Made by a program: the position numbers and the translations under genes | In this document: one piece after another, positions 25,178-64,000 of the stretch | How positions within the stretch are numbered: position 1 is the stretch's first letter | Layout of the letters: each line of letters begins with the position of its first letter | Assembly (NCBI RefSeq): GCF_022045235.1 | Contig: NW_027266265.1 | Span: 34,720,001-34,784,000, forward strand | Direction of reading: 5' to 3' | DNA length: 64,000 nt | Source: Haliotis cracherodii | Lineage: Eukaryota | Notes under the pieces: generated by a model | The model's database searches: none | What the model saw: only the letters and a program-made list of their open reading frames with translations | What the model was told of the DNA's origin: nothing

Positions 25178-28100
25178 GGCGTTCCTTCCTGCTTCTCCTT
25201 ACTTTGCATCGTAGGCCATCAATCTGAAAACAATTATATGAACAAACAGTCATAGCGAGTAATAACACAGTACCTATACCTTGTTTCCTTTAAGAAGGGT
25301 TTTAATTTATTACTCACCCATGAAGAGAAGACCCGTCTAATATCAATACACATTTATAAAACAAATACAAATTTTGTGTTCGCTGTGCCTTAACCTTGGT
25401 ATAATTGAAAATATCTGGATATTTTTATATAGTATGGTGTAGTTTTCTATCAGGAATAAATGTGCAAAATATTTCTTCAATTGGCCTTTGTTTAATGAAG
25501 CACTGACAGTCAGAAATCGTCCACCCTCTTCACAGAGCCTTATGTCCAAACAATTCAGCAGGCTAAAAGTTCAACAGTGTTATATAACACCAAGTATGGA
25601 TGCGACTATATTTTGTCATGGTCATTCCAAAGGTGGCATCAGTATCACGGTGCAACTGTACTCCACATCTACTCTTCTCCGAGATGGATAATCTACTCCT
25701 GATAGACACTACTATTTTGCATACCCTAAGAATGTATCGCAAAACCTGCAATATTATTGACATATTTTACTTGAATTTTCAAGTTGTTTTTTTATAGTTG
25801 CCTATGATCTTTCGCAGGACACAGGAACAAATATGATATACAGAAATTATACAAATACTCACTTTTGCATTAAAAGGTTCAGAGATTCACTAATAAACAA
25901 AACCTTATGTCATTTAGCATATCACACTGCATCTATTAACACCCTTGGACTTTGTGTTGCAAATGAGAGTAACCCTCTTTGCAAAAGGGGGAGGATAATA
26001 AAAATATTGTCCATATGTCAACTGATGCAATCGCATGTCGTGAAATTTTTGTGCTCCGAAAATGCCTAAATGGATTAGCTAGATGCTAATTACAATCAAT
26101 TTTATAACAGATAAACAATCTGCCGCCCATATGAAATCACGCAGTCAACATGACATGATGCAATGGTCCCTCATCAGGTTTCCCTAACCTACACTCAACG
26201 AAGAGTGAAGCTCTGAATGAAGATGTTCCAAACTTGGTAAGGCTAATGTGAACATGTTTTTAAAATCGGCATCTTATAATCATCTCATAGAAAGTTTACC
26301 TTATTGCCAGGTTACACCTTGAGTAAGTCGAATCATGAGCTACAAATGTTGCATTCATATGTCCCCCTTATATCAGTTTGTTGTTTAACACCGAACTCAG
26401 CAATATTCCAGTTATATGACGGCGGTCTGTAAATAATCGAGTCTGGACCAGACAATCCAGTGATTGATATCTTGAGCATCGATTCACGCAATTGGGATCG
26501 ATGACATGCATCAACCAAGTCAGCAAGCCTGACCACCCGATCACTTTAGTTTGCCTTTAACGACAAGCATAGTCACCTTTTACGGCAAGCATGGGTTGCT
26601 GAAGACCTATTCTACCCAGAATCTTCACGGGTCTCATATTAAGGGTGTAATGCTTGATCAAGCTAATAATGCAACATAATTGTCCATGAGTGAATGAGTG
26701 TAGCCTTACCCTGCTTTCAGGAATATTCCATCAATATATCATGGGGAAACATCAGAAACGAGCTCCACACATACCCAAGTGGTGTATCATGCCCAGGTGC
26801 TCGACATTACGAGCGAGAATAGCTCCAAGCACATGTCAAACCATTCAAGATGATAGTCCAAAATAAGCAAGTTTTGAATCCACAAAGAAAAAGCTGATAC
26901 TAGAGCTGGGACGAGACCAAATTCACTACCAGGGTACCCACCCCTCTATTATCCGACACTACCCGAGGTACAAAATGTCCGATTGGGATTAGTTTGACCA
27001 TAGCCAAGGACAGAATGTATGTGGATACATGTATAAAACAATCTGGTCATGCATACACTGATGTTGACTGAAGTTTTATCTTTATTCAAACATAAAAATC
27101 AGAAGGAATGGATGCATAGTCAGAAAGAAATCTGAACATTAGGACTTGTAGTGTAACCATATAGATCTAGTGTCCTAGATCATTTTTGTCATTAAACATC
27201 ATATTACGTGACTAACCATGGGTCTGGGTAGTACTGTGGGTACCCAGATCCTTCTAAGAACCCACCCAAGTCGAGTAGCTGAGTTATGGTTCATATATCA
27301 CATTCATTAATGTTCATTCTCATACATTACAACGCTGACTGATTAATATGGATATCAGAATGAAATCAAAATGACACTTTGACAGGCCAAACAAAATGAC
27401 AGAAAATGTCTGATATCACATTCACTATCAGTACTACTCATTGTCACTAATTATAAAAAGTTAACCGATAAATACTAATACAGGATGACAAATAATAAAG
27501 CATGAATGTATTTCATCATGCAAAGACACCGACGTCAATATGAAACAAACTGACATGTCTTTTTCCCAGCATCATATTGTCAAAATGAATCAATGCCCTT
27601 GACCACTTCTCATTTTTTCTCAGATTTAGATTGTATGTCAGTACTCGAGACCTTTGCTTACGACACGAGTCCGTCTAGTTTCTAAACTCGACCGGTTAGA
27701 GTAGGCCCACCCGAATACCCTTCATAAGGTCAGTGTCCTATCGAAAAGGCCTCAGTGTTCTGTACTCAAAACAATGTCATTTGCAACCAGGAACTGACGT
27801 TATGCACTCTTCCTTTTACTTATGAAATGATCAATTAAATGTGCTAACTTAATGTCAAGCACTGTATAGCAAATGGAACCACGTACCAACTGTGGACACG
27901 GGCTACAACACCGTCTTCTCATAACGCAACATTGTCGTGTTTATCTTCCCACCAAGCGTTGGTCGCTGTGAACTCTAGCGGGTAATACAAAAGACGGAGT
28001 TAGCTGTCATTGAAAACCTGGATCAGGCGTTTCTAAAACGAACTACGAGTAACTATAGTCCCGTGTGTCTAATAATTGTCCAAACTAAATCGTTGAATTA

Positions 28101-30037: not shown

Positions 30038-30860
30038 ACTGAACAGGAGGACAGTCTACTACAGCTTCAGAAGGTACCCTACAACACGAGGAGGCACACT
30101 TCAACCGTAGGAGGTAAACAAGCTCAGAAGGTCTACTTCAACCTCAGAAGACACACAGACCCTTGAAGATTCCGGGGTAGAATAGGTCTTCAGCAACCCA
30201 AGCTTGCCGTTAAAGGCGACTATGATTGTCGTAAGAGGCGACTAACGGTATCGGGTGGTCAGGCTCGCTGACTTGGTTGATGCATGTCATCGTATCCCAA
30301 TTGCGTAGATCGATGGTGATATCAATCATTGGGTTGTCTGGTCCAGATTCGATTATTTACAGACCGCCGTCATATAGCTGGAATATTGCTGAGTGAGGCG
30401 TTAAACCACAAATAATAACAACAACAACAACAACACAGCCATCTCGAAATGTACGCTAAATTCTCATGTAGTACACTACAACGTAGGAGGTAAACAACAT
30501 CAGAAGGTACACTGAAATCTCGGAAGGCACCTCTGAAAATAGTCATCAACCTCATAGGCTACACTGTAATTTAAGAAGGCACACAGCAGTTTCTTAGGGC
30601 TCCCTACAACAACATATGCCACACCAAACTCCTTCCCAGCGCGTGACACCTTCGTTACACTCTCGGTAACATCGCTGCCACCAGTGTGGGCGCGGCCATT
30701 ACAAGAATCTTGAAATTTGCCCTCTAACCCCATGTGTAGTAACGTTTATACTTTTGTTTATGTCTTTGAGAATGCCATCATATTCATTTTGAAAAGGTTT
30801 ACGGCTGACCATGTTTTCCAGATGAATATACTTTGTTGTTTTGATAATCAGATTGGTTAG

Positions 30861-33153: not shown

Positions 33154-33470
33154 TGTAACAAATGTTATATTTGGGATAACATTTTTTTAGTAAAGTGCAG
33201 ATTCTCGTACTTTTGGGGGGTTGAGTCCCGTCCGGAATTCGAACCCACACTTGCCAATTTACACATGTCAGAGGTGTACTCAAAGTACGTGTTCTTGACT
33301 ACAAGTTGTCGGACTTTCATTTTTTGTGGAAGCCTCGGTGTCTGAGTGGGTAAGAACGCTGACTTTGTGTGCTGGCGATTAGGTGCCTCACTCTGGGACT
33401 CAACCCCCAAAAAGTATGAGAATCTGTACTTTACTAAGAAAGTGTTATCCCAAATATAACATTTGTTACA
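33154..33470. mobile_element. Foldback/MITE with ~75-bp inverted repeats
   Basis: tgtaacaaatgttatatttgggataac...gttgagtccc versus gggactcaac...atttgttaca; absent from the other array spacers. Confidence 0.75.
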
Positions 33471-35266: not shown

Positions 35267-36855
35267 GGGATAAAAAGAATTAGGAACGGAACACGCATCA
35301 TGATTTTTAAGATGTAACATTTAGCATGAACAATTCTACAGCTAACCTAGTTTTACTTTGAAAACACGATATGTGTATGTTTATCTCCATTCTATCATGC
35401 TAACACAAACGCTGTTTGGTGTTTGTAAAAGGTCTTAGTGAAGCAGTTTGGTTGACCCCAATGTTTGGAGTGGATTGTCCATGAATTAATTAAACACCAA
35501 TTAAATGCTTTTGTTCAAAGGATGGCGATGTATATTGGTTCTACATTTGTATTCTTTGCCAGTAAAGATGATAATCATTGACAGTGTGTGTCACAGCTAC
35601 TTCGTAAGCAAAGTGTGTATCCTTAAAAATTAAGCAAGAATTGCAATGTTGTCCTTAATATTTGCTATTTAGTAACATTCCCTATGCATGTCGCACAAGG
35701 TCTTCGAGAATCAGCTGATGAATTGGTCAGACTCACTGACTGTCGATTGTCAACATACTCCGGCAACGAACTGGTTTGTCTGGTCCAAACTTGACATTTT
35801 GTTGGAATTCGAAAGTAGCTGGAATTCTGCTGAGTGAGGTGTAATAGAACAAACGCCAGGTGTTTGTTATTGTACTGACAATATGTTACTGTCTTGTATC
35901 TTGGGAAGATCTTATGATAGCAAACAGTTTACTACCACTGTTTGTGTCATTACAACTTTGGCTATAATGGACAATTGTCATGTTTACATACTTAATGTAA
36001 ATATACTGCAGTGGGATATTCCAGCTGTTAATGCGATTGCGCGTAATGTCAAAGACTCAGGTTTGATTCCCCACATGGGCACAATGTGTGAAGCCCATTT
36101 CTTTTACCTTCCTCTGTGATATTGCTTGAATGATGGTAAGTGGATAAAATTATTCTCAAACTAAAATAACACACTTCACATTATCAAAAAGATTATCCTA
36201 TGTGAATTTTTATTATTGTTGAGGTGGTGTTCATGTGCACCTGCAAGTTTATATGTCATATGCTTTGGAGACTATTAAACATATCACATTACCATAGATA
36301 GTTCATTTATCGTGTTTCGCAGATTGAATGATTTTACATAGTGATTCTTTGTTCCCTCATGTTGTACATACGTCAGATGACATATATGTCACACATGCAA
36401 ACAAATCCAGTATATGCATAGCTTTCATGACAACTCTAAACTCACAATTATAACGATTTTATCAGAAATACACATGTAACGTTTACAAGCTGTTTTCCCA
36501 AATGTACATAGATGCAAATGACAAAGCAAAATACAGTTTAAATGGATATTGATTGACTTGGACCATCCGTACATAATGTGTACAGCAATCACTGCAGATT
36601 CCACTGGGATAACTTAAAGTATTGCTATACATTCATTTAATTGCTCCTGGACAGTCTGTTATGGTTACCATTGACCAGACATGGTTTAATTGCCCTCTCT
36701 CTCTCTCTCTTGTAACAGTGCCTGTAGCCTGTTTTGTGGCAATGTTTCACGAGGGTTATAAAGGACGAGATGTGCGCACAGTCGAATCTGTTATGCCAGA
36801 TTATTGAAACTGGTTATTCTCTAGCGTTGACACTGTATGTTGTATTGTATTTAAT

Positions 36856-37971
36856 ATGGACCATTTCGTGAGAATCGGTATGGTCAGAATATGCCTTTTC
36901 CTGTTTGTATTTATGGGTGCAAAAGCAGATTCAGAAACAAGAGACTCTTTAAGTCATTTGAGGAAGTATCTTCTTGCACAACAAGATAATGCTGTTCCTC
37001 CGTTCAAAGGAAACTCGAAATCAGTAGACGTTTCACTGTCCTTCACCCCGGTCACGATCCTAGACCTGAACTCTGTCACCCAAGAGTTGACTGTGGCTGG
37101 ATATCTCAGGGTAAGATGGCTTGACTCGAGACTCACTTGGAATGTTCACAATCATTCAGATGTCCGATTGATGGAGGTAAGAAGTGGCGACATATGGACA
37201 CCCACTATATCTGTTGGCAACAGTGTATCAGACATGAATCCAATGGAAACAAAGATACCTATTGTTGTCATGCATTCCGGGTACGTGACATGGCAAGCTG
37301 TCGATGTTTTCCGGACAGTGTGTAAGATAGACGTTTCACGATTTCCTTTCGACACTCAACACTGTCCCCTGCTCTTCACTCCTCCCTATGGATACACACT
37401 TAACATTACAATTGATGACACCGATATTCCAGGAAAGAATGTCTTGGGTGAAAACGGTGAATGGAAAACTCGAAGAGTTTCTGCGCTCCTATCATTAATA
37501 GAAACATTTGAAATTGCCGAATACATGCTCACATTGGAAAGGAAATATGTTTACTATTTCATTAACTTTCTCTTCCCCATGGGCCTCATGTCCATCCTTA
37601 ACCCATTCGTGTTCCTCATCCCAGCTCGGTCTGGGGAGAAACTTGGCTTCTTGATGGCTGTCTTTGTTTCTCATACAATGTTCCTGAGTCTGATCCACGG
37701 CAACATGCCACCCACCTCGGACAGCACATCCACGCTGTCTCTGTACCTGTTGATGAACGAGATCCAAGTATTCCTCACCATCTTTGCCTCTATCATTGTG
37801 CTTGTGGTTCATCACCAGAAAGAGGAGGCCAGAACCAACACAACATCCTCGGACACAAAACCCTTTTCTGGATCGTGCAAGTACTGTAACTGGAAACGTT
37901 TACTTGACTGTGTATTTTTTGCCGTATTTTTGACAATAGCTGGTGGCAGCATCTTGATCCTGTTCATTTAG
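36856..37971 (+). CDS. Intronless atypical nAChR-like Cys-loop subunit, copy 2
   Basis: Near-identical paralog 2705 bp downstream; TATAAA at 36757. Confidence 0.92.
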   Translation: MDHFVRIGMVRICLFLFVFMGAKADSETRDSLSHLRKYLLAQQDNAVPPFKGNSKSVDVSLSFTPVTILDLNSVTQELTVAGYLRVRWLDSRLTWNVHNHSDVRLMEVRSGDIWTPTISVGNSVSDMNPMETKIPIVVMHSGYVTWQAVDVFRTVCKIDVSRFPFDTQHCPLLFTPPYGYTLNITIDDTDIPGKNVLGENGEWKTRRVSALLSLIETFEIAEYMLTLERKYVYYFINFLFPMGLMSILNPFVFLIPARSGEKLGFLMAVFVSHTMFLSLIHGNMPPTSDSTSTLSLYLLMNEIQVFLTIFASIIVLVVHHQKEEARTNTTSSDTKPFSGSCKYCNWKRLLDCVFFAVFLTIAGGSILILFI

Positions 37972-39589
37972 GGGATAAAAAGAATTAGGAACGGAACGCG
38001 CATCATGATTTTTAAGATGTAACATTTAGCATGAACAATTCTACAGCTAACCTAGTTTTGCCTTGAAAACACGATATGTGTATGTTTATCTCCATTCTAT
38101 CATGCTAACACAAACGCTGTTCGGTGTTTGTAAAAGGTCTTAGTGAAGCAGTTTGGTTGACCCCAATGTTTGGAGTGGATTGTCCATGAATTAATTAAAC
38201 ACCAATTAAATGCTTTTGTACAAAGGATGGCGATGTATATTGGTTCTACATTTGTATTCTTTGCCAGTAAAGATGATAATCATTGACAGTGTGTGTCACA
38301 GCTACTTCGTAAGCAAAGTGTGTATCCTTAAAAATTAAGCAAGAATTGCAATGTTGTCCTTAATATTTGCTATTTAGTAATATTCCCTATGCATGTCGCA
38401 CAAGGTCTTCGAGAATCAGCTGATGAATTGGTCAGACTCACTGACTGTCGATTGTCAACATACTCCGGCAACGAACTGGTTTGTCTGGTCCAAACCTGAT
38501 ATTTTGTTGGAATTCGAATGTAGCTGGAATTCTGCTGAGTGAGGTGTAATAGAACAAACGCCAGGTGTTTGTTATTGTACTGACAATATGTTACTGTCTT
38601 GTATCTTGGGAAGATCTTATGATAGCAAACAGTTTACTACCACTGTTTGTGTCATTACAACTTTGGCTATAATGGACAATTGTCATGTTTACATACTTAA
38701 TGTAAATATACTGCAGTGGGATATTCCAGCTGTTAATGCGATTGCGCGTAATGTCAAAGACTCAGGTTTGATTCCCCACATGGGCACAATGTGTGAAGCC
38801 CATTTCTTTTACCTTCCTCTGTGATATTGCTTGAATGATGGTAAGTGGATAAAATTATTCTCAAACTAAAATAACACACTTCACATTATCAAAAAGATTA
38901 TCCTATGTGAATTTTTATTATTGTTGAGGTGGTGTTCATGTGCACCTGCAAGTTTATATGTCATATGCTTTGGAGACAATTAAACATATCACATTACCAT
39001 AGATAGTTCATTTATCGTGTTTCGCAGATTGAATGATTTTACATAGTGATTCTTTGTTCCCTCATGTTGTACATACGTCAGATGACATATATGTCACACA
39101 TGCAAACAAATCCAGTATATGCATAGCTTTCATGACAACTCTAAACTCACAATTATAACGATTTTATCAGAAATACACATGTAACGTTTACAAGCTGTTT
39201 TCCCAAATGTACATAGATGCAAATGACAAAGCAAAATACAGTTTAAATGGATATTGATTGACTTGGACCATCCGTACATAATGTGTACAGCAATCACTGC
39301 AGATTCCACTGGGATAACTTTAAGTATTGCTATACATTCATTTAATTGCTCCTGGACAGTCTGTTATGGTTACCGTTGATCAGACACAGTTTAATTGCTC
39401 CCTCTCTTTTGTAACAGTGCCTGTAGCCTGTTTTGTGGCAATGTTTCACAAGGGTTATAAAGGACGAGATGTGCGCACAGTTTAATCTGTTATGCAGGAG
39501 TAGTGAAACTGTGGTTATTCTCTAGAGTTGACACTGTATGTTGTATTGCAGTTAAGTGATGTAATAGGGACCCTTACGTGAGAATCGGT

Positions 39590-40681
39590 ATGGTCAGAAT
39601 ATGCCTTCTCCTGTTTGTATTTATGGGTGCAAAAGCAGATTCAGAAACAAGAGACTCTTTAAGTCATTTGAGGAAGTATCTTCTTGCACAACAAGATAAT
39701 GCTGTTCCTCCGTTCAAAGGAAACTCGAAATCAGTAGACGTTTCACTGTCCTTCACCCCGGTCACAATCCTAGACCTGAACTCTGTCACCCAAGAGTTGA
39801 CTGTGGCTGGATATCTCAGGGTAAGATGGCGTGACTCGAGACTCACTTGGAATGTTCACAATCATTCAGATGTCCGATTGATGGAGGTAAGAAGTGGCGA
39901 CATATGGACACCCACTATATCTGTTGGCAACAGTGTATCAGACATGAATCCAGTGGAAACAAAGATACCTATTGTTGTCATGCATTCCGGGTACGTGACA
40001 TGGCAAGCTGTCGATGTTTTCCGGACAGTGTGTAAGATAGACGTTTCACGATTTCCTTTCGACACTCAACACTGTCCCCTGCTCTTCACTCCTCCCTATG
40101 GATACACACTTAACATTACAATTGATGACACCGATATTCCAGGAAAGAATTTCTTGGGTGAAAATGGTGAATGGAAAACTCGAAGAGTTTCTGCGTACCT
40201 CTCATTAATAGAAACATTTGAAATTGCCGAATTCATGTTCACATTGGAAAGGAAATATGTTTACTATCTCATTAACTTTCTCTTCCCCATGGGCCTCATG
40301 TCCATCCTTAACCCATTCGTGTTCCTCATCCCAGCTCGGTCTGGGGAGAAACTTGGCTTCTTGATGGCTGTCTTTGTTTCTCATACAATGTTCCTGAGTC
40401 TGATCCACGGCAACATGCCACCCACCTCGGACAGCACATCCAGGCTCTCTCTGTACCTGTTGATGAACGAGATCCAAGGATTCCTCACCATCTTTGCCTC
40501 TATCATTGTGCTCGTGGTTCATCACCAGAAAGAGGAGGCCCAGACCAACACAACATCCTCGGACACAAAACCCTTTTCTGGATCGTGCAAGTCCTGTTAC
40601 TGGGAACGTTTACTTGACTGTGTATTTTTTGCCGTATCTCTGACAATAGCTGGTGGCAGCATCTTGATCCTGTTCATTTAG
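39590..40681 (+). CDS. Intronless atypical nAChR-like Cys-loop subunit, copy 3
   Basis: Upstream ATGs changed (AGG, GTG); ATG of signal peptide MVRICLLLF retained at 39590; TATAAA at 39456. Confidence 0.9.
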   Translation: MVRICLLLFVFMGAKADSETRDSLSHLRKYLLAQQDNAVPPFKGNSKSVDVSLSFTPVTILDLNSVTQELTVAGYLRVRWRDSRLTWNVHNHSDVRLMEVRSGDIWTPTISVGNSVSDMNPVETKIPIVVMHSGYVTWQAVDVFRTVCKIDVSRFPFDTQHCPLLFTPPYGYTLNITIDDTDIPGKNFLGENGEWKTRRVSAYLSLIETFEIAEFMFTLERKYVYYLINFLFPMGLMSILNPFVFLIPARSGEKLGFLMAVFVSHTMFLSLIHGNMPPTSDSTSRLSLYLLMNEIQGFLTIFASIIVLVVHHQKEEAQTNTTSSDTKPFSGSCKSCYWERLLDCVFFAVSLTIAGGSILILFI

Positions 40682-40912
40682 AGGATGAAAAGAATGAGGA
40701 ACGGAACGCGCATCATGAGTTTTAAGATGTAAACTTACTGCTATCAAATCTACAGGTAACCTAGTTTTTACATTAACGACACGGTTAATGTAAATGTTTA
40801 TCTCAGTTCTATCCTAAAAACACGAAACACGATCTGAATTAACTAAGCACCGATTATATGCCCGTAAACAAAGGATAGTGATGTATATGCTTACATGTTG
40901 TTTTTACATATG

Positions 40913-43004: not shown

Positions 43005-43964
43005 TATATACATAATTGAACCCATATACATATTCATTTACATATATAATTTCATATACACATTCATATTCATACACATACACTGAACATTGTACTAAAA
43101 GCTCTTTATACATATTCCTGCCAGTGTGCCACGGGTAATTAAAAAATAATTATATAACAGGAAACAGTATTTTTGTCACAGTAAACAGATATCAAGCATA
43201 TTTATTACTTTTGTTTGTATCGGTAAAGCTGACACTCACTCACTCACTCACTCACTCACTCACTCACCCACTCACTCACTCTCCCACTCACTCACCATAT
43301 TGCGTTACAGCTGTGGTTACATCACCTTCTTATGGTGAGAAATAGCTTCTTCTTGGAATGTATCATCATCTTTAAAGTAGTGTTGTGATAAAATGTCACT
43401 AGCGCCCAGCATACCTGCACAAAATACTTTCATCCATTCATGCATACCGGAAACAAATAACATGGGTCGATAACTGCTGACTCAGCACGTCTATAATAAA
43501 GTAAAGATGCTCAGCAAAGAGACAGAAATATCTCACCTGTAGTGACCAGAGGGAAGGCAAAACACACATGACTGAAAAAATGTTTTTGACATGGAGAAGG
43601 ACGTCATCCCGAAGCATTAATGTACACGTTATGGGTCTGGGAAATCATGGTTTGGATGGAAACCTAATTATAAAAATGTTACTCCAACATACTGCATGGT
43701 TAAATATACCTATTGCTTTTTACCGGGGCATGATTTTTTGTGTGAATACTCAAACTGGTTATTCTAGTCATACCTGATAATGTGTACGTGATGTATTCTC
43801 CCATACTCCCCACAGTGACATCCACAATATGAACATTTAAATAAGTAATGACGCTTTGATTGGTAGGTAATCCCGTGAGTATGTAAGGAAAGAAGCCCTC
43901 TGAACCCATTGTCGTAATGCCGTTGGTGTATCATTGCACTCTCCTCCCCATGTTTATCTGGTCC

Positions 43965-44282
43965 ATAATCGATACTTACTTTGATCATAATCGATACTTA
44001 ATTAGGTCATAATCGATACTTACTTAGGTCATAATCAATACTTACTTAGATCATAATCGATACTTACTTTGATCATAATCGATACTTAATTAGGTCGTAA
44101 TCGATACTTACTTAGATCATAATCGATACTTACTTTGATCATAATCGATACTTAATTAGGTCGTAATCGATACTTACTTAGGTCATAATCAATACTTACT
44201 TTGATCATAATCGATACTTAATTAGGTCATAATCGATACTTACTTAGGTCATAATCAATACTTACTTAGATCATAATCGATG
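43965..44282. repeat. 20/21-bp minisatellite, ~15 copies
   Basis: Unit cataatcgatacttacttagg and variants. Confidence 0.9.
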
Positions 44283-46180: not shown

Positions 46181-49100
46181 ATGACTCGTGAAACGGCGTT
46201 AGTGCTCTTAAGCATTATAGTTTATGTATCATCTGCGCATAAGGTTGAAAAGGCTGCAGCCATCCCCACAAGATATAACGCATGGGCAGCCGGATCCAAT
46301 AACTGTTCCTGTGCGTCCGATATCACTGCCCTCAAGAGAGAAATCCTCCAGGAAGTTCATCAGCGACAGGAACTCAAGGGTGCTTTGGAGACCTATGTTT
46401 CAGAACTTTATGAACTCAGAGCTTTAGTCACTGCTCTAAAAAATGCAACCAAAGGTAAGTGTTTATTCGGCCATAGGACTGTCAATTTAACACTTTCTAC
46501 TTATTCTTTTAATAAGGGAGGTGGATAGCATATTGGTTATAGCGTTCACTCTTCAATCTGAAGGTCGGGTCCGTTTCACCTTATCTAAAAAGTGCCAATG
46601 AAATAGTTCAAACGCCGTCTACAAGGAGACGTGGCAATCCGATGTGAGGATATATACCGAAACGTCACATCATAATAGAATAAAGAAGTTGTCATTAATA
46701 AAATATCTTGTCTTCACTGTTACTTACCAAATTCTAAAAAAATGACCCATGAAGATCCGGGGTAGAATAGGTCTTCAGCAACCCATGCTTGCCGTAGAAG
46801 GCGACTATGCGTGTCGTAAGAGGCGACTAACGGGATCGGGTGGTCAGGCTCGCTGACTTGGTTGATGCATGTCATCGATCCCAATTGCGTGGATTGATGT
46901 TCATGATGTAAATCACTGTATTGTCTGGTCCAGATTCGATTATTTACAGACCGCCGTCATATAGCTGGAATATTGCTGAGTGCGGCGTTAAACAACAAAC
47001 CAAACAACCAACCAATCTAAAAAATGCCAATCAAACAGTTTATATTGGAAACATCCGACACACTAACCACTTAAGCATACCAGAAGGCATAATTTAGCAT
47101 GGATTATGAATTTCTATATTTAATAAATGTACCAGTTGGTTTTGATTAGTCTCAGACATGTGTTTAGACAAACAGATATTGCTAGGTCAATTACTTCAAA
47201 GAAAAACCGACAAAAAACGGGAACATAAGGTACACGTCAAAATAGAGAATTGCATCGGACATCATCATTATGCAAAGAAATAACATAAGCAGATCAATAT
47301 GCTGAATGCAAAAGACAAACTTTACAATATGCTGAATGCAAAAGACAAACTTTACAACGTATGTTAGTGATCATCTGGCCAGGTTATGCAAGTACTTATC
47401 CTGTGAGCAAGTGGTTATCATGATTATGGCTCAGACAGTGTTTGGAGCATCCCTTTAAATTTAGTTTAATTTGAAAAGAATGAAAACAGTGCATACAACA
47501 CACCCAACGGTATCATTTCTTATTAACCAACTATTGTCTATACAACCTCGTGAATCATAGGATAAGTTTAATGAGCCGCAGTTTGTTGTTCAGAGATTTG
47601 CCTTGATCGTGATTTTTGGTTTGTCAGCGCCATGCCCGTACTGGTGGGTGTCAACCTTTTTAGACCTGCATCATTTTGAACTTTTCTCCCCCAAAGCTGA
47701 CAAGTTGTTGTATAACTGAAATCATGTTCAACAAGGTGTTAGCCCACCTCTTTTTTAAGCCTTACAATATTTGATAAAACGCCTACAAATTGTAAATTTT
47801 GTGGAAACAGCAAAAATATGCATGATTTATTATGAATTTATATCTAGTTCATCAAACAGTTTACTGTGAAAGCCTCCAGAGGTGATATGAAATGGGGTTT
47901 AACAACGTGTTCAACAATAAACACCTCTAGAAACCAGTCTGCAAGAATACACATGATTAATAATGCTTGTTATTTCCCATTGCTCCTCTTTTTGTCAATG
48001 CAGAGATACGTCAGTAGTCTGTAACATATTTGCTGTATTCGATGATAGCCGCACAATTCTTTATACGAGTCGTTCTATCTATTCTATCAGTATGGGTTTT
48101 TTTCTTATACCAGGATGATAAAAAATGGTCACGCTATGAAACTGATTTATTTCAAGGACCCGTGAAGATCCGGTTTATAATGTGTGTTCAGCAACCCATG
48201 CTTTCTTATAAGAGGCGACTTTGCTTGTCGTAAGAGGCGACTAACTGGATCGGGTGGTCAGGCTCGCTGACTTGGTTAATGCATGTCATCGTTTCACAAT
48301 TGCGTAGATCGATGCTCACGATGGCAGTTACTTGATTGTCTGGTCCAGACCGCCGTCATATAGCTGGAATTATGCTGTGAGCGGTGTAAAAACAACAAAC
48401 AAAAATCAAACATACTAACAAGTGTAAATCGGTCTATAAATACAACTGAATGTTATACAAAAGGCGGAACTCTCACCGATGATTAAGGAATTCCTTGTAC
48501 ATAAGAAGATTAGGATTTGTTGATATCTGCGACAAACAGTTCCTTGTATATCTGGCATTCTTAACCTTCTTTATATAATGCTATGGCCATCCGATTAGTC
48601 GCTATGCCAAAAGTGAAAACGAAAAGTATGATTCAAACCATTTAATAAGGGACATTTGTGTCATGGAAGCAGTAACGGTATAAGTATTATAACGTCCATA
48701 TTACAATAGTATTTTCTGCACATTACTACAGCTACACAAATGTTAAGCCCATTTCTGGTGTCCCCCGTCGTGATATTGCTGGAATATTGCTAAAAGCGGC
48801 GTAAAACAATACTCACTCACTATAACTACACATTTTATTTTAGTGGCCCGAGCTACTGCATTGTCCGCTCAGAGAGACCCACCAGCAATCGCCTTCACTG
48901 CCAAGCTGAGCTACAACCGAGAGCTACAACCTCTGGACACCGTCATCTTCGACACAACTATTACCAACAACGGCGAGGGGTACAATTCAGAAACTGGTAA
49001 ATTCACGGCGCCCCTCTCTGGGTCGTACTACTTCTTTGCTACGGTGTTATCCGGCTACAACACCAAAGTGGAAACTGCGGTCATAGTCAATGACAAAGAA

Positions 49101-49277: not shown

Positions 49278-52047
49278 AAACTTTGCAAAATAAACTGTGG
49301 TTTTCGTGAACAATATGACATTTCCTTGCAGGGCGAAGAAGCTAGTTCGCGTGTGTGTGCTATCCACGCTCTGGTCCAAGAAGTTTTTGTATTATTTTTT
49401 TTGTATTGTGAGAGTTGAATAGGAACGCCTGTCTCTTAATCTAGACGTGTGTTATGTTGATTATAATGATTTTACAATTTAATAAATATACTTTGATATA
49501 AAAAAAACGTCTTTGTTGTCATGTTATATTTCATTGTCGATATTCTCCAAGTTTTCCTTTATTCGACTCTTACGTTTTTCTAAGGACATTGTATATGGAT
49601 AGTACGGATAAGTTCAGGTATTTTACTTTAGGTTTCAGAATGCATGTATGACATAATATATGTCAGATGTATGCATTGTTGAACACGACGTTACAATGCT
49701 ATCAGCCATTCTCCAATAAAAGGTTTTCACGTGAATCACTTACACCTGTTCATAGTTAGAGACAAGAAGTTTTACTATTGAATGGGTGTAAAATGTTACC
49801 AGTGGATTGATGACATGGTTCTTATTATTCTACTTTTAAGCATTTCAGTGATTCGTTTCTTAAAATGTCAGGTTTGTTTTTTGTTTGTTGGTTTGTTGTT
49901 TAACGCCGCACTCAGCAATATTCCAGCTATGACGGCGATTTGTAACGAATAGAGTCTAGACCATGCTATCCAGTGATTGACATCATGAGCATCGCTCCAC
50001 GCAATTGGGATACGATGACATGCATCAACCAAGCCTGACCACCCGATCCCGTTAGTCGCCTCTTAACCAAGCACAGTCGCCTTTTACAGCAAGCATGGGT
50101 TGCTGAAGATCTATTTTACCCCGAATCTCCACGGGTCTAAAATGTCAGGTAAAGGCAATTGTGAACATTTTAAGCATTTTACATCTTCTGCCCTAAAGTT
50201 CAACAGTCATCTGAAGTACAACCTGTACGGTCGTAGAGATATCGTGGATATCCCAAACCACCTATGTTAAGCACAGTCGTGGAAACCTGTCTCTGACATT
50301 ACTCCCATCAACAGACAAGAGACCAGAATTTTCAGCATCTCTGACGCGTTGTGTCTTAGTAGCATTTATCAATGCTGAGACAACTACAAAACAAATATGG
50401 GCCCAGACTTTACATCTGCGCCAAACTGTGTTGCAAAACGAATATATTTCTTAAAGTTTTCTTTACTTATATTTACATACCGGTTTTATTAGTTTTAACC
50501 AAATCAGTAATGGTGCTCTCGTGTCGCTGGATTTACTGGTTCATCGATCACTTGATTGTATGGGTTTTTTTCAAGCTGACGTCGCATGGCAAGAGTGCTG
50601 CTGTTCAACGTCACGCAATAATTACATTTTTTATGCAGATTGTATGAATGGCGGGTGCTAACGGTAGGGTAGGACTTGTTTACCCTTTTAGCAAACACCT
50701 GGTGTCATCACTGGTTTTCAGTAATCCATTCATTTAATTTCCACACCTATTTGCCCTTTACGCCAAATGGAATCTGTTTTGGAAGCAAATCTGGGTTGGT
50801 TATTCCCTTGCATTTACAATATAAAATTTACAACACAAAGACCTAGTCGGGTGTGTTGCAGTGTGATGAAGGTGCTCGATGTCATCGGCAGAAAAGAGTC
50901 CTGAATGTACATCACCTCGCCATGTCTCAGAACACAAAGGTGTAGCAGTTTGATGAAGGTATCACCGCCCGTCATCAACAGCTTACTCACGGGCTCAGGA
51001 TCACATCTGTACAAATTGTCTCCTGTTTCATAACAAAAACTTCCTCAAACTGCACAGCTCCCTTGTTTGACAGGAATTAACTTAACATCGCTGAGACAAT
51101 TTGCGTGTTTGTTTTGAGGGGCTACTGTTGACGCATGACAAGTTAATGCTGACTTTAACGGTTCAAGCACACGAAGCAAACCGCACTGAACAAGCACGTA
51201 AACACAACAGGACAACAACCGCGGACACGGAGATGGAAGTGGTGTGTAGAATGTACGGCTTATTACGTGTATTATGTCGAGTTGGCCCAGATGATGAAGG
51301 TCGACCAGGGCTTAATATCCCATCGAATATAACACCCACGTGGCATAGACCATAAGGCTTTTTGTACTTGGATCCGGGAATCAGGTCTCACGCTTGTATT
51401 TGAAACAAGCTAATATTTGAAATATTATATTCATTTTAAATAACACCCAAGGCCTAAGTTTATTCCTTATATTCATTTTGGACAGTTATTCTCTTTCGAT
51501 TTCAGAAATACATCTTAAAATGCATAATTCTTTTGAACTCTGATGTAACCATATATTTGGACAATGAATTACACGAACGGAGAAGGCGTTGTTTAGATGT
51601 ATATGTTTTGTGCAGTCTGAACATGTAGATTAATACGCTTTTTTCCATACACTACTTGGAGAAGAAACTACTTGTACATATACTGCATGGACATGAGCAT
51701 TATGGGTTTAAAATCAATTCCAATCAAGGTTCGGACCAATGTATGTATATTGGTATAATGATGTTCTTATATACAGCACATCACAGCTTCAGCCAAACAC
51801 AAACCATCCTTTTTGAGAAACATATCACTTTGGTACAAAATGATGATCTTACATACAGTATATCACAGCTTCAGCCACACACAAACACCCGAGGTACAAT
51901 AGTGCAATGGTGGCATTCTATATTTATCTATACATCCAAAATGTATTGGTTTTGTTCAAATGATATACATTTTATTTTATAATTTCATGAGATGAAGTTT
52001 TGGGATATAATAGATCTCTGGGCATATATATATTGAATCCACATCAC

Positions 52048-53140: not shown

Positions 53141-54512
53141 CTATCCAAACAGTGACACGGCATATCCAGAGAATGTGCTCCATTGTCCGTGAACATAATC
53201 CCCGTTGCCGTAGAACAAATTGATTGAAACCTCATCGCCTTGTTTCAAGTTCACGAGAATAGAGTTTGTTCCTGAACCTCTGTTGTTGAAGGAGCCCGAA
53301 TACAACCGTCCCATTTCTGCCCCGTTGACCACAAACATTGTTTCAATGGTGGTGTTATAGCCACTGAGGATGGTGGCGCTGAAATGGTAGACACCGATGG
53401 CAGGTGATGTGAACTTGCCGGTGTAGGGGTCGTATGCACCAGCATTGTTGATGATGATGTCGTCGAAGATTACAGTGTCGACGTCCTTGAGATATGGTCT
53501 GTTGGTGCCAACGCGGGCCGAGAAAGAAATGTCCTGTGATTGTCCAAGAGCTGGTCGAACTGAAAATAGATGAAGGCATAGGACGTTACAGTGAAGCATG
53601 GCACCGAGAATATCCATAATGTAGTCTCGTTATAGTGATAACGTATGTAGCTTCACGGCAGTATAGCGAGCCTATAGAAGATCAGACAATATCAGAAAAT
53701 GAACAAGTCAATATCAGAAAATCCATCAGACAATATCGGAAAATAGGTCAGACAATATCAGAGAATGGATTAGACAATTTCAGAAAATGGATCAGACAAT
53801 ATCAGAAAATGGATTCGACAATATCAGAAAATGGATGAGACAATATCAGAAAATGGATAAGACGATATCAGACAATGGATTAGACAATGTCAGAAAATGG
53901 AGACCATACTAGAAATATGAATTTTAATGTGATAAGTTTACGTTCATAGCAGAGATATTTTATGATTTTGAATTATTTTGTATCGCTTATATTTCAAACG
54001 GTGGCATAATAACGAGGTTAGTGTTAAATTAAGATTCGATGTCGTGAACTTTTTCTGGACGTCATTACTCAGATGCAATGGTGAGCAAGGTACAAATTTA
54101 GGATACTCGAGAATTTTATTTGTTAAAGAAGTTCCTGAACACTGAAATATCTCATAATAAACCAATCATGAACGCCGTAAACTTATATCGGTGGCAAGTA
54201 CTAACGTCCGTTCCTCAACGCCCTCATTCCGTTCTGCATGTTGTATAACTCCGCCGACAGCTCGTCCATTCTGTGCTGAAAACTCTCAAGTCTTCCATGA
54301 GAAAGTCTAAGTTGTTTTTCGAGATGTGAAATTTCCTCCAAACACGAACACACTTCGGTTGTTCCCGCCGTCTGGAAGTTTGAATCCGGCTCCCGAGGGT
54401 TTGTTGTAGTGTCTCGGGAATTTTCGCCATTTGTCGGAAACACGGGCCACAGGGCGGTGGCTATCTGAGCCAAGCACATCCCGAACAGAAGGGCCGATGT
54501 TGTGATAGACAT
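53141..54512 (-). CDS. Secreted C1q-domain-containing protein, paralog; exons 54512-54206 and 53559-53141
   Basis: TATAAA ~70 bp upstream; C|gttagt and ttttcag|TT phase-1 intron; SFSAR..VIFDDIIIN..YDPYTGKFTSP..STFSGY. Confidence 0.92.
53680..53900. repeat. 21-bp minisatellite in the C1q intron
   Basis: Unit gacaatatcagaaaatggatt, ~10 copies. Confidence 0.85.
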
Positions 54513-55928: not shown

Positions 55929-57059
55929 TACATTTGTTTTGCTCATGATCATGGAAAGGCCGGACCCATACATCGTGACAGTCTTACACACGATTGATCA
56001 CATAGGCAAAGACGTCACACAGACACAGTAGACACAAATGATGACAACAACTTTCTACAGAGACGTCGTCATTACAGTAACATTAAGAAGTTGTGTCTAC
56101 TTTGTCATCCGTCAACTTCTAAGAAATGTCTATCAAACAATCCATGACTCAGCCATGCACTGATAAAAAGACGCAATACATACGTGTATATACATGCGAG
56201 AAGATACATGTACATGACAATACATGTATGGATGTAAAGTGGGTACACACACGCAATTGTGCATTCCACGTGAGCATGCTAACAATAACACACCGTATAT
56301 GCATGTAAAAAGGGCACAAACACACGACTGTTCATGTATTCGTTTAAATTCAAATGTCCACGCCGGAGAATACTCAGTCACGGATACAAGCCGAACGAAT
56401 TCCATGGGGAAAATTCAACATCGTGATGACATTATATAAATCGATCACTGAACATAAGTGATGACACCAGGTGATCGCTCAATTGTCCTATTATACCGGT
56501 AGCATCCGCCACTGACACACTTGTAAGGGTGCAAAGTGATTGAGAGAGTGAGTATTGTTTTACGCCGCGTTTAGCAATATTCAACCAATATCACGTCGGG
56601 GGACACCAGAAATAGGCTTCCCACATTGTACCCATTTCAGGAATCGAACCCTGGTCTTTGGCGTGACGAGCCGATGTTTTAACCACAAGGCTTCCCCACC
56701 GCCCCTAAGGTGCAAAGACGGTAAACATACCATACATGCCCCGATGCCAAGAAGGCACGCACGCGCGCATGTACAAACGGTACTCATAACTGAGGGTAAC
56801 TGTATTAATGTGCCTCATGCTGAGAAAACCCACGGACATTACTTTAATTGGGTTCATTGTAAGCAACAATATACCAGTCAGTGTATATTAAACAAATAGG
56901 TCATCTTATCTCCCATGAAATGAAGATATGTTACTGACAGTAAATACATTTTATCATAGATACAGTGTGCGATTAAAGAACACCTCTACATGAGTAGTAA
57001 GGGAGGGCATACATCGACATTTAATTTTTATTTCATGGGCACAGTTTTACATGTAATGA

Positions 57060-57470
57060 ATATCATCAGTTCTACCCGTGAAGAACCTGATATGGCATTG
57101 CTATGGAGAACCGGAAGCATTCCTCCTGATAATACAGTCAGACTTTTATCATCTGTGGGCCAAAGTTCCATGGAAATAAGTACATCAATTTTACCCATAA
57201 AGAACCTGATATGGTATTGGTATGAAGAACAGGGGCCTTCCTCCTGATAATACAGTCAGACTTTTATCATCTGTGGGCCAAAGTTCCATGGTAATAAGTA
57301 CCATCTATTTTACCAATAAAGAACCTGATGTGGTATTGGTATGAAGAACAGGAGCCTTCCTCCTGATAATACAGTCAGACTTTTATCATCTGTGGCCCAT
57401 AGGTCCACGGTATTAAGCACCATCAGTTCTACTCATGAAGAACCTGATATGGCATTGGTATGAAGAATTG
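57060..57470. repeat. ~118-bp tandem repeat, ~3.5 copies
   Basis: cctcctgataatacagtcagacttttatcatctgtgg at 57122, 57240, 57359. Confidence 0.8.
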
Positions 57471-60400: not shown

Positions 60401-60543
60401 GGTTTGGGTTTAGATTAGAAATTAGTTGCCCCAAAATATCCACAGAAATAAATATACAAAGAATGCAATAAATACAATTAGATGTTGATTTTATCCATCA
60501 CAAAAACTCAATTGAACAGGACAGGGGTAATCTCTGTCGTGTA

Positions 60544-60601
60544 GGCACTCGTGAAGAGCAACCTCCTCGTGGTGAGTGCTGGGTAGCGCTAATAGCTCTT
60601 C
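60544..60601 (+). ncRNA. Minimal HDV-like self-cleaving ribozyme at the LINE 5' end
   Basis: P1 GGCACTC/GAGTGCT (G-U first pair), P2 GAAGAGCA/T(A)GCTCTTC, P3 ACC/GGT, L3 TCCTCGT, P1.1 GG, J4/2 GCTAA. Confidence 0.85.
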
Positions 60602-61225
60602 CCCCGTGTGGAACCGGGGCAGAATATTTCCACAGCACCCCATTGCTGGTCGTAAGAGGCGACCAAAGTGGGCAGCCCGTTTGCCGTGGGTTGCGTCCCT
60701 GTGTCGGCGGAGGACGGGAGTCTGGTAGTTGAGGGCACTGGTTCCTGGAACTGTGTTCCTTTGCCCAACACACTACTTCGACCCTTACTTCGCCTAGACG
60801 GGTGGTAAGATGGGCCCGGTCTTATCAATCGGCTGGTCATGCCAGGCCCTGTGCGTAATATTGTATATACACACATGTGTTGTATTTTGATGTATATTTT
60901 GGCCTTGGCCATGCATAAATTGTGTGAATTAACTATTTTGGATTATATAAATTGCCTAGAGTCTTACGCCAGAAGGCGGTGGCTCATGGGCCAATCTGGT
61001 GATGTTGACCTCCGAATAATATATGTCTCCAACTTCTGTCATTGGCGGAACCAGTCTGGCATTGAGTTGGTAGATAAATGTAGCTATTCGCGTCATATTT
61101 GCTGGAGTATAGAACCCCTGTATCCCTGGTGTTTGCATCTTGGATATCCGTTGCAATGTGACACCGTCCTTGTTGACGCTCCATGGCGGGTGGGGAGCGG
61201 GAGTTCTGAACTACTTTCTGTCATC

Positions 61226-62479
61226 ATGTCTCTCCCACAACTTGGTTCCAATAGAAATGAAAAAAAGAGAAGACTAGAAATTGACAATTCAACGGACAGT
61301 GTGTCTCAAAACATAGATTCGTGGTCTAGATTTCTGGTTATTGAGGCCCAGGATCAACTGCCCCTTAAACTCAACCCTTTTGCGATTTCAAAAGCCGTTT
61401 CTGGGATTTGTGGCGAGGTTAAGAATGTCACGCGTCTCCGTGGTGGTTCCCTCTTGGTGGAATGTTTGCGGAGGCAGCAATCTCTTAATCTTTTGTCCAT
61501 TCATGTATTTGCAAATGTTGAGGTTGTTGTGTCCGCACACAGGACATTGAACTCTTGCAGAGGTATAGTTCGCGATAGAGCTCGTTGCCTGGCGGATATG
61601 TCAGAAGATGAAATCACTGCAGAGTTGGAGGATCAGGCTGTCACGGCTGTTAAACGCTTTACCGTGAGGAAAGAGAGTGGCATTCAAAATACAAATACAT
61701 ATATGCTGACTTTTGCACGCTCATCTATTCCCCAATCTATTAAAGCAGGTTATAACAACATCGGAGTGGAGGTGTATGTCCCCAATCCACTCCGATGTTT
61801 CACTTGTCAACACTTTGGACATGGTTCAAAATCATGTCGTAACTCAGTGGTTTGTTCTCGCTGTGGTGGCGATCATGATGGAACCAGTTGTACAAATGCC
61901 GCCAAATGTGCTAACTGTGGCAATGACCATGTCGCCTCATCCAAGTCCTGTCCTGTGTGGCAGACAGAATCTAAAATAATCAAAATTAAATGTGAACAAA
62001 ACATTTCCTACAATGATGCAAAACAACTTGTAAAAAAACAGTCAACATCTCCCTCAACTTTGCATTATTCTGCAGCTGTTTCCTGTACTGTCGCTACTTC
62101 CTCTATTCATTGTCAGACTGATTTGTCTTGGATTATATCTGATCATCCAGTTCCAACCAAATCAGTTACTCCTCCAAAGTCAGTTGAACATCTGCCTAGT
62201 TACTCAATCACTTACTCTACAGCAGAAACTCAGACCAGTAATCAGAATGTGGGTCAATCTGACCCAGCTGTTCCAGCACCAGCCGTTGACATTATACACT
62301 CTTCAAAAAAAGGAAAGAAAAAACTGAACAGAAAAGCTGCCAGGGTACCCTCTCCACCAGAGGTACCAGTTCACAACTCCTTTGAACTTCTGGACATGGA
62401 GGTAACTCCGTCTTTGGAGACCAGCAGGAGTTCCTCTCCCTCACGTTCACGTGGGAGATCACCAATTGAGCCACCATGA
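61226..62479 (+). CDS. LINE ORF1 (gag-like nucleic-acid-binding protein)
   Basis: Likely start MSLPQ at 61226; YVPNPLRCFTCQHFGH, CSRCGGDH, CANCGNDH knuckles. Confidence 0.88.
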   Translation: MSLPQLGSNRNEKKRRLEIDNSTDSVSQNIDSWSRFLVIEAQDQLPLKLNPFAISKAVSGICGEVKNVTRLRGGSLLVECLRRQQSLNLLSIHVFANVEVVVSAHRTLNSCRGIVRDRARCLADMSEDEITAELEDQAVTAVKRFTVRKESGIQNTNTYMLTFARSSIPQSIKAGYNNIGVEVYVPNPLRCFTCQHFGHGSKSCRNSVVCSRCGGDHDGTSCTNAAKCANCGNDHVASSKSCPVWQTESKIIKIKCEQNISYNDAKQLVKKQSTSPSTLHYSAAVSCTVATSSIHCQTDLSWIISDHPVPTKSVTPPKSVEHLPSYSITYSTAETQTSNQNVGQSDPAVPAPAVDIIHSSKKGKKKLNRKAARVPSPPEVPVHNSFELLDMEVTPSLETSRSSSPSRSRGRSPIEPP

Positions 62480-64000
62480 CTCAATCATCATATTTAATTC
62501 AATGGAACTGTAGAGGACTTAGGAATAATTATAATGATTTACAACTCTTAATCCAGGATTTTAAACCATCTGCATTATGTTTACAAGAAACATATTATAA
62601 AGACACTGACAAATTTGATATTAGAGGTTATACCTCATACAATTTCTTTTCACCTCCAGGTGCTAAAGCCACTGGAGGTTCTTCAATTTTAATGAAAAAC
62701 GACGTCATCCATAGCCCCGTTCAACTTACTACTCCGCTTCAAGCTGTTGCAGTCCGTGTAACTTTGCACATAGTTTTTACTTTGTGCTCGTTATATATTC
62801 CACCATCTACTTCTCTCCGACAGTCTGAACTTCAAGCTCTCTATGATCAACTCCCCAAGCCCTGTGTTATAATGGGTGATCTCAATGGACACAATCCACT
62901 TTGGGGTAGTGTTCAGACAAATAATAAGGGGAAGCTTTTGGAAGACTTCATTTCAAACAATGACTTATGTATTTTTAATGATGGTTCAAACACATATCTC
63001 CATCCCGGTACAGGTACTTACTCTGCACTGGATTTATCAGTTACAGGTTCTGCTTTATTAAACGAATTTGAATGGTCTGTCCATGAAGACCTATGTGGCA
63101 GTGATCATTTTCCAACCATTTTAAAACCTGTCTTACCTTCAGATGTTCCTCCTTCAACAAGATGGAACTTCAATAAGGCCAACTGGCCTTTGTTTGAAAT
63201 GCTTGCATCCACTAAATTAAAACCTGATCTGTTTCTTGAAGCTACTGATCCTGTGCAATTATTTTCTGATGAATTAAACAAATTAGCAGATGAATGTATT
63301 CCTAAGTCCTCTACAAATCCACATATCCGTAAACCATGGTTCAATAATGACTGCAAACAAGCTAGGAAGGCACGGAAAAAGGCTGAACACTATTTCCGTC
63401 GCCATCCCATGGTCCATAATTTAAATAAATATAAAATCTTAAATGCTAAAGCCAGGCGTACGTTTAAACAAAATAAACGGCAATCTTGGCAACATTATGT
63501 TTCCAAGATAAACTCGCGAACGCCCATGTCCAAGGTATGGAACATGATACAAAAAATTAAAGGTAAGGGTTCTAAATGTAGCGTCCACCATCTTAAGAAT
63601 GGGGATGAACTACTAACTAATAAATCGGATATTGCAAATAAACTAGGTGAAACGTTAGCTAAACATTCTTCTTCCTCAAATTATGTCCCTCAATTCCAAA
63701 AATTTCAAAAACAGCAGGAACAGAAAACTATACATTTTAAATCGGATAATGGGGAAGATTATAATGAAATATTTTCGATCCATGAACTTCATACCGCTCT
63801 TGGACAAGCTCATGATACTGCTACAGGAGCTGATAATGTACACTATCAACTCCTAAAGCACTTACCAGAACCGTGTTTAGAAACCCTTTTGTTGATTTTT
63901 GATGATATATGGACAACAGGTAAGTTTCCTTCTTCCTGGCGTGATGCCATAGTAATACCCATACCGAAACCTGGACGGGATCACAGTGATCCCTCAAATT
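62476..64000 (+). CDS. LINE ORF2, partial: APE endonuclease and start of RT
   Basis: ATG overlaps the ORF1 stop (ATGA); IQWNCRGL, LQET, MGDLNGHNPLWG, SDHFP, PWFNNDCK, IPKPG; no stop seen. Confidence 0.92.
   Translation, partial: MTQSSYLIQWNCRGLRNNYNDLQLLIQDFKPSALCLQETYYKDTDKFDIRGYTSYNFFSPPGAKATGGSSILMKNDVIHSPVQLTTPLQAVAVRVTLHIVFTLCSLYIPPSTSLRQSELQALYDQLPKPCVIMGDLNGHNPLWGSVQTNNKGKLLEDFISNNDLCIFNDGSNTYLHPGTGTYSALDLSVTGSALLNEFEWSVHEDLCGSDHFPTILKPVLPSDVPPSTRWNFNKANWPLFEMLASTKLKPDLFLEATDPVQLFSDELNKLADECIPKSSTNPHIRKPWFNNDCKQARKARKKAEHYFRRHPMVHNLNKYKILNAKARRTFKQNKRQSWQHYVSKINSRTPMSKVWNMIQKIKGKGSKCSVHHLKNGDELLTNKSDIANKLGETLAKHSSSSNYVPQFQKFQKQQEQKTIHFKSDNGEDYNEIFSIHELHTALGQAHDTATGADNVHYQLLKHLPEPCLETLLLIFDDIWTTGKFPSSWRDAIVIPIPKPGRDHSDPSN

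Follow-up and report, generated by a model that had tools for sequence, protein, structure and literature searches.

A predicted double-pseudoknot RNA domain in Haliotis retroelements and in virus records as a possible cap substitute

Related RNA modules and the published LP head

How promoterless or capless LINE and SINE RNAs obtain a defined, stable and translatable 5' end is open for most clades. The modules described at such ends include the HDV-like ribozymes of LINEs and the Pr77 of L1Tc/NARTc (PMC5786205; PMC3383444). These are short 5' modules, common to autonomous and non-autonomous elements, and they set the 5' end. The six ribozyme-bearing LINE clades quoted by Kojima 2018, in the available part of the text, do not include I/Nimb (PMC5786205). 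A further module is the head of the LP-SINEs, which in the available parts of Matetovici 2016 are described as tRNA-less or tRNA-fused and as 255 bp long in Haliotis (PMC4758252). This LINE-derived (Nimb-type) head of ~70 bp is common to Nimb-17_LMi, I-3_DR and RTE-9_CPB, whose 5' ends it forms. It was named LP ('LINE promoter') and its promoter role was proposed as a guess. The word 'pseudoknot' occurs 0 times in the main text, and the available portions mention no viral occurrence (PMC4758252).

Two kinds of viral RNA elements are also comparable. The TSS of TCV contains two stacked pseudoknots, H4a/psi3 and H4b/psi2, plus the hairpin H5, with the pseudoknots at its bounds (PMC5336357, Le et al. 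2017). It is a ribosome-binding 3' CITE in the 3' UTR of an uncapped, non-polyadenylated tombusvirid. The TSS region acts in replication and is also required by a non-translated satellite RNA (PMC5336357). The xrRNAs are compact pseudoknotted elements in viral 3' UTRs, as the domain described here is predicted to be in its RNA-virus carriers (PMC8632102, PMC12397905, PMC10520033), and are found, among others, in tombus-like and dsRNA viruses (PMC10520033). Class 3 xrRNA halts Xrn1 at the base of its P1 (PMC12397905), whereas plain frameshift pseudoknots do not stall Xrn1 (PMC10321173). The literature searched yielded no xrRNA in retrotransposons. To our knowledge, the TSS is not known from retrotransposons either.

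The window analysed here is a stretch of 64,000 nucleotides (G000:C2:34720001-34784000) within the 1.18-Gb genome of Haliotis cracherodii. A full-length LINE of ~6.2 kb starts at 60544 on the forward strand. Its 5' UTR carries the domain just behind a ribozyme of the HDV-like kind, in the place given in the first-pass annotation (Table 1), which is unlike the account in the available parts of Matetovici 2016. The 2016 publication of the sequence domain and a resistance to 5' exonucleases were both absent from that annotation.

By the alignment in the supplement of Matetovici 2016, the domain is the LP head. Both AGAAT and the hairpin occur in the scallop LP heads of the available supplement, and a reading by eye places these heads on all five helices of the model presented below, with a different P2 sequence (PMC4758252). 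The SINE family type and the 70-bp sequence domain are already published. New here are the double-pseudoknot model, the location of the domain downstream of the HDV-like ribozyme of an I-group LINE, and the occurrence in RNA and DNA viruses; none of them was found in Rfam 15 or the open literature, and subscription papers, Repbase, Dfam, figures and bioRxiv supplements may describe the motif. No Rfam 15 family matches the domain, at the gathering score or in E-value scans. The 15-nt hairpin string gave 0 main texts in a literature full-text search and is absent from the Kojima 2018 supplement.

Table 1. Features of the window and, in the last rows, viral records carrying the domain.
Feature	Position	Strand	Remarks
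LINE target-site duplication, 12 bp	60532..60543	+	second copy ~6.2 kb downstream, after (CTCA)n tail, outside the window
HDV-like ribozyme	60544..60601	+	Rfam RF02682 match; helices visible in the sequence
Domain (LP head), five helices in a predicted double pseudoknot	60601..60672	+	covariation
Pseudoknot 1, H-type	60602..60633	+	P1 60602-06/60615-19; P2 60608-13/60628-33
Pseudoknot 2	60634..60672	+	P3 60634-36/60645-47; P4 = loop 60639-44 x 60667-72
LINE ORF1	61226..62479	+	Cys-His knuckles
LINE ORF2, 5' part	62476..64000	+	endonuclease, RT, RNase H; full frame continues past the window
Family-C SINE	46744..47015	+	domain head with duplicated hairpin, body, LINE-like tail, (CAA)-type repeats, TSD
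Family-C SINE copy	30158..30430	+
Family-C SINE copy, decayed	48157..48420	+
Family-C SINE copy	26376..26633	-
Family-C SINE copy	49875..50137	-
Viral record L174			toti-type RdRp
Viral records L176, L177, L193			tombus-type RdRp genomes (RdRP_3)
Viral record L172 (near-identical L166)			tetravirus-type capsid segment
Viral record L356			S-domain capsid record; long ORF matched nothing; second, truncated domain copy in tandem
DNA virus L173, 212 kb, AT-rich	2954-3026		intergenic gap, two ORFs after the NAD-dependent ligase gene

The predicted fold

The domain is predicted to be a conserved RNA made of two pseudoknots and an invariant hairpin, in the order 5'-P1-U-P2-P1'-AGAAU-P2'-P3-P4-P3'-P5-UAA-P4'. 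In pseudoknot 1 the first loop is the single base U60607 and the second holds the invariant AGAAU (60621-25). A one-base loop and a stem of 6-7 bp belong to the classical H-type pseudoknot, as in this first half of the fold. The hairpin P5 (60649-53/60659-63) is inserted within pseudoknot 2, between the P4 strands.

The main alignment contains 18 copies (12 retroelement-type, 6 viral), aligned by sequence only, with 24 invariant columns. That the domain is a conserved RNA structure, as annotated at first, is borne out: none of 500 shuffles reached the score of the whole structure. For P1, P2 and P5 together 95.7% of the cells pair (score 0.467; 0/500 shuffles as high). The stem GTGGAA (60608-13)/TTCCAC (60628-33), which is P2, and the hairpin core (60649-63) are present as annotated. 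P2 carries two-sided changes at all six of its pairs, so the compensatory nature of this stem stands; the register that set TGAAGA of family C against GTGGAA was off by one base. The pairing drawn at first between the loop GGGG and a downstream CCCC can be drawn in the window copy, and does not hold in the alignment: 60.7% of the cells pair against a shuffle mean of 60.6%, with 296/500 shuffles as high (18 rows), and the energy swap test gives 1103/20000 in 24 rows and 10887/20000 in the 10 non-viral rows. A pseudoknot does exist, and in fact two, with other partners: the G-run pairs with the 5' C-run as P1, and the linker pairs behind the hairpin as P4. The earlier stem and hairpin are kept, and P3, which had been missed, is added.

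P1 is 96% paired (3/500 shuffles as high, 18 rows), with a swap between G-C and C-G in four rows. P3, a 3-bp helix right after P2, was found unprompted by RNAalifold and shows 13 double changes (0/500 shuffles as high). With P3 formed, the C-rich linker becomes a loop, whose partner in P4 is the strand 3' of the hairpin. In a held-out set of 14 rows no partner swap of 20000 was as good for either P3 or P4; in 9 less related rows, 4/20000 were as good for P3 and 1/20000 for P4. Two further rows, missed by the pattern, were dropped from these sets. In the energy swap test on the 10 non-viral rows alone, P1 is modest (629/20000) and the linker pairing P4 is not significant (2187/20000); the support for both therefore comes from the wider and the held-out sets. 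P4 is also weak or absent in three of the six viral rows of alignment A2. P5 never varies in sequence, and its pairing is consequently plausible and draws no support from covariation.

The rows are related by descent, and the shuffle and swap counts are not to be read as probabilities. P1/P2 pairing was one criterion in choosing the intact copies (72 of the 141 matches qualified), which favours these two helices. No such selection acted on P3 and P4; the bases of P4 are those of the pseudoknot drawn at first. In 106 unselected, model-fitted metagenome matches, P2, P3 and P5 are kept, with 91% paired. A pairing of the 5' C-run with the 3' G-run was rejected because it fails the swap test (12473/20000), though single-sequence folding of SINE C prefers it. 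In the families L142, L113, L144 and L184, insertions of 10 to ~60 nt lie between P1' and AGAAU, and this loop is thus not length-constrained.

The helix order can be compared with those of the described systems. As in the TSS, two pseudoknotted hairpins are combined with a third hairpin. In the TSS, going by the fragment ends, psi2 presumably links the loop of H4b with bases 3' of H5. On the other hand, the TSS, in the parts of the source available, measures ~100 nt and has a large H5 and an upstream A5 run, whereas the domain measures ~72 nt and carries an invariant hairpin of 4-5 bp; it has neither the size nor the large H5 of the TSS. Class 1 xrRNA also has five helices and two pseudoknots in the available text (PMC8632102). 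Its three-way junction with two hairpins inside P1 and its base triple are not found in the domain, where P2 closes before P3 begins. The class 3 pairing of an apical loop with the 3' end and the T-loop L2B are not found either, since the first loop of the domain pairs with the 5' strand. The coremin sequence, as given in the available part of PMC10520033, is absent. The domain also differs in helix order from the HDV-like ribozyme, behind which it sits. We class the domain as a new structured-RNA family, the action of which is likely that of an xrRNA or a 3' CITE.

Carriers among viruses and retroelements

A landmark pattern search returned at least 123 metagenome, 17 viral and 10 prokaryote-genome stretches. 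With the covariance model, seven of the 17 viral records and one from another search score 45-76 bits; the best other score is 27 bits (others scanned, one locus per group of similar matches). Of these eight viral true copies, the model was trained on six, one of which is almost duplicated by a seventh. The remaining 10 viral pattern matches are due to chance (at most 27 bits among those scanned), and relaxed viral patterns gave no new true copy. In all six distinct RNA-virus-type records the domain lies on the coding strand, ~4-200 nt past the last stop codon, and ends 17-122 nt before the end of the record. In the DNA virus, the length of which presumably fits an invertebrate iridovirus, the P2 of the domain resembles that of family C.

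That toti-, tombus- and tetra-type virus records and a large DNA virus all carry this fold speaks for a host-facing RNA module, one that passes between retroelements and viruses. The domain could instead be a signal to which the polymerase or the ORF1 protein of the element itself binds, acting in RNP assembly or in second-strand or minus-strand initiation. Its place near the RNA termini of both retroelements and viruses agrees with such a signal, as does the action of the TSS region in replication (PMC5336357). This explanation is nevertheless quite improbable, as the same invariant bases occur in I-group and RTE LINEs, in toti-, tombus- and tetra-type viruses and in a DNA virus, the polymerases of which are unrelated; a common host target is simpler.

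No match was found among 50,697 phage records or among 72,556 plasmids. Across 185,579 prokaryote genomes there are only 10 pattern matches, of which seven score as the domain. One of these (L187), in a record titled as the genome of a bivalve gill symbiont, carries an animal-type LINE 5' UTR and ORF1 at 1870-2120, and this retroelement is likely host contamination; the other six are presumably contamination as well. L187 and the window LINE have a common UTR stretch behind the domain, and the window ORF1 and the ORF in L187 are 41% identical over 282 aligned positions. Upstream of its domain L187 has ~110 nt of unexplained paired sequence, in which no ribozyme family of Rfam was matched.

The window LINE has the layout of the I group: ORF1 with knuckles, ORF2 with endonuclease, RT and RNase H, and a short-repeat tail (CTCA)n. 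From this layout we infer that it belongs to Nimb. The ORF2 frame runs uninterrupted for 1232 aa from stop to stop. ORF1 matches no Pfam family at E 0.001; in the window copy its frame reaches, without a stop, 129 codons further upstream than the likely start, to an ATG at 60839. Across LINE subfamilies the first 310-460 nt, which comprise the ribozyme, the domain and the following UTR, are mostly 86-97% alike, against 70-83% further downstream (L286-L315, L002-L030 vs L031). This suggests strong selection or an exchange of 5' UTRs. A higher contig depth over the LINE 5' UTR, observed in four contig sets, is explained by the subfamilies that share this UTR. The LINE copies cluster densely at G000:C2:20.9-21.75 Mb and C3:30.0-31.0 Mb, and many lie within another copy of this LINE, their ribozyme immediately preceded by ORF2 sequence (loci L286, L295, L302, L309 and L016). 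The clustering and nesting may reflect nested self-insertion or a preferred chromosomal region.

The ribozyme of the window LINE is a true HDV-like module. It matches Rfam RF02682 with 27.5 bits (E 0.0024), under the gathering score, and has a P1 (60544-50/60574-80) that begins with a G-U pair, a P2 (60553-59/60595-601), a P3 (60561-63/60571-73) with its L3 and a J4/2 cytosine, C60589, as the candidate catalytic base; the element starts at G+1. In this I-group LINE the ribozyme has almost no P4. The predicted cleavage site coincides with the LINE 5' end. Among the first 30 of 436 pattern matches, which were chosen via the downstream domain alone, 28 copies start exactly at 60544, the predicted cleavage G, two within 3 nt of it and none at the domain. 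RNA with a 5'-OH survives RppH/Xrn1 treatment (PMC8782182), which fits LINE copies that start at the ribozyme.

The family-C SINE starts differently. All five heads named in the first-pass annotation exist (46744, 30158/30160 and 48157 on the + strand; 26633 and 50137 on the - strand), and the hairpin is duplicated in each of them. The elements of this SINE family measure ~255 bp, show TSDs and end in a (CAA)-type tail; a strict pattern gives 2171 matches against 0 in the control. With the LP-SINEs it has in common the Nimb-type head in place of a tRNA, the TSDs, the tandem-repeat tail and the length; family C is thus presumably Hdi_LP, an assignment made from these features. No tRNA and no A/B box was found in it. 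The tail resembles that of the window LINE at 26 of 34 core bases (score 66; best of 1000 shuffles 58), whereas the body has no likeness above shuffles to the rest of the LINE 5' UTR. The partner of this bipartite element is therefore probably another, related LINE and not the window LINE. The description of a non-tRNA bipartite retroposon, with a LINE-type head and a LINE-like tail, is in this way upheld. Subfamilies C and D have a common body and are set apart by a double compensation in P2, and the non-coding SINE RNA itself consequently likely needs the fold.

In a small family of four copies (L112, L131, L134, L101) the domain is joined straight onto the 5' side of a tRNA-like head that contains an A-box-like stretch, as in the described scallop MESC SINEs; ARAGORN found no tRNA in it. 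Besides the duplication of the hairpin only in family C, whole-domain tandem copies occur in the retroelements L075 (1371-1515), L205 and L227.

The starts of the non-autonomous elements are exact. In SINE C (30 copies), in metagenome families of 25 and 17 copies and in one of 5, the agreement between copies starts at the first base of the P1 strand and is at background one base earlier. A TSD was found in 11 of 27 SINE C heads examined, and in nine of these it places the start within 2 nt of the first P1 base. The element spans obtained in this way measure mostly 235-254 bp (270-272 in two). The first base is mostly a purine (G 18/24, A 12/16 and G 14/16).

Such exact, mostly purine starts, together with the many invariant bases, could also arise if the domain were itself a self-cleaving ribozyme, one of an undescribed class, with its cut just 5' of P1 as in the HDV-like ribozymes and without activity in the window LINE. 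The domain forms the 5' ends of Nimb-17_LMi, I-3_DR and RTE-9_CPB (PMC4758252), and UTR ribozymes can occur in linear RNA viruses (PMC13725137). We regard a ribozyme as improbable, because no LINE copy of 30 starts at P1 despite an intact domain, cleavage in a viral 3' UTR would separate the genes from the 3' end, the base ahead of P1 is unconstrained among the viral copies and no Rfam ribozyme matches the domain. It is scarcely credible that the domain is solely an internal DNA promoter, the role proposed by Matetovici 2016 (PMC4758252) and also listed in the first-pass annotation. The position at the element starts and the purine first base agree with a promoter, but the base pairs covary as in an RNA, RNA viruses without a DNA stage carry the domain and the LINE copies start 58 nt upstream of it. 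By analogy with the Pr77 of L1Tc, a promoter may overlap an RNA function.

A possible cap substitute on uncapped RNAs

Whatever the domain does has to operate on RNA, and to do so in viruses that lack a DNA stage, in SINEs that code for nothing and downstream of a ribozyme. The reading tentatively preferred here, with a chance that we put slightly short of even, is that the domain is a cap substitute on uncapped RNAs, which would stall 5'-to-3' decay of the Xrn1/Xrn2 type at its first helix, with or without a role in translation. The weights given to this and to the other readings are judgement, not computed. In SINEs without a promoter or ribozyme of their own, the decay of a read-through transcript would stop at P1; the remaining RNA would begin exactly where the element does, and a LINE protein would then copy it via the LINE-like tail. 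In the window LINE, the HDV-like ribozyme likely would cut upstream first and leave a 5'-OH end. Behind it, the domain could be a second barrier or could perform the second job of a cap, the recruitment of ribosomes. In viruses, what the domain would protect is a short RNA at the 3' end.

An exonuclease block accounts for exact starts that need neither promoter nor cleavage, for the place in the 3' UTR, for the tandem copy and for a range confined to eukaryotes. The start of SINE C exactly at P1, with no tRNA or A/B box, counts for the stall. Other observations count against it. None of the 30 LINE copies starts at P1, and they consequently bear no trace of trimming; in that family the domain looks redundant with the ribozyme. 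The viral domain ends 17-122 nt from the end of the record, so that the stretch protected would hardly exceed the domain itself. The 24 invariant columns suggest recognition by a host machine more than a mechanical block, the purine starts also fit transcription starts or ribozyme cuts, and the helix order is unlike that of any xrRNA class compared.

Several of these points are better accommodated by the main rival, in which the domain would be a translation element only, a compact analogue of the TCV TSS that binds ribosomes or an initiation factor; a cap-independent translation element was already proposed in the first-pass annotation. Such an element would drive the cap-independent translation of the ribozyme-cut LINE RNA and of uncapped viral RNA, and would bring the SINE RNA to the ribosomes that make ORF2. 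Alu RNA reaches ribosomes through SRP9/14. The place behind the ribozyme, the invariant bases and the short viral products are explained better in this way than by a decay stall. The helix layout is that of the TSS, the region of which a non-translated satellite RNA also needs (PMC5336357). Three virus records, of the tombus type (RdRP_3), have the domain near their 3' end. Behind the ribozyme of the LINE it is retained in subfamilies that are only 70-83% alike downstream, 11 ATGs lie between the domain and the likely ORF1 start at 61226, and an invariant hairpin suits a contact with a protein or the ribosome. On the other hand, translation alone leaves the exact P1 starts of the non-coding families unexplained. 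The domain is also smaller than the TSS and has a shorter hairpin, its likeness to the TSS is one of layout, and P4 is weak or absent in half of the viral rows. A role in translation only is for these reasons somewhat unlikely.

The decay-stall and the ribosome-binding readings may both hold, as a cap does both jobs. The full combination, in which a fold unlike those described would be exchanged between retrotransposons and eukaryotic viruses and would both block Xrn1 at its first helix and recruit ribosomes, is in our judgement unlikely. Should it hold, this would be the first class of exoribonuclease-resistant RNA that animal genomes encode, and SINEs could exist without promoter and without ribozyme. 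The five-helix model supplies natural compensatory variants. A small RNA that stabilises 5' ends would also be relevant to all-RNA gene insertion, in which the donor's 5' stability appears to be limiting (PMC12222951).

The surroundings of the LINE offer some minor observations. A RING and B-box (TRIM-like) gene lies in pieces after the LINE 3' end, just right of the window (L031:7260-9211). Within the window, a tandem repeat with a period of ~2.7 kb occupies 32091-40828 in about three copies that are 87-95% alike. The self-comparison of the window also shows minisatellites at 2384-3066 (~71 bp), 18002-18687 (~156 bp), 43960-44281 (~22 bp), 53679-53901 (period ~22 bp) and 57047-57467 (~119 bp).
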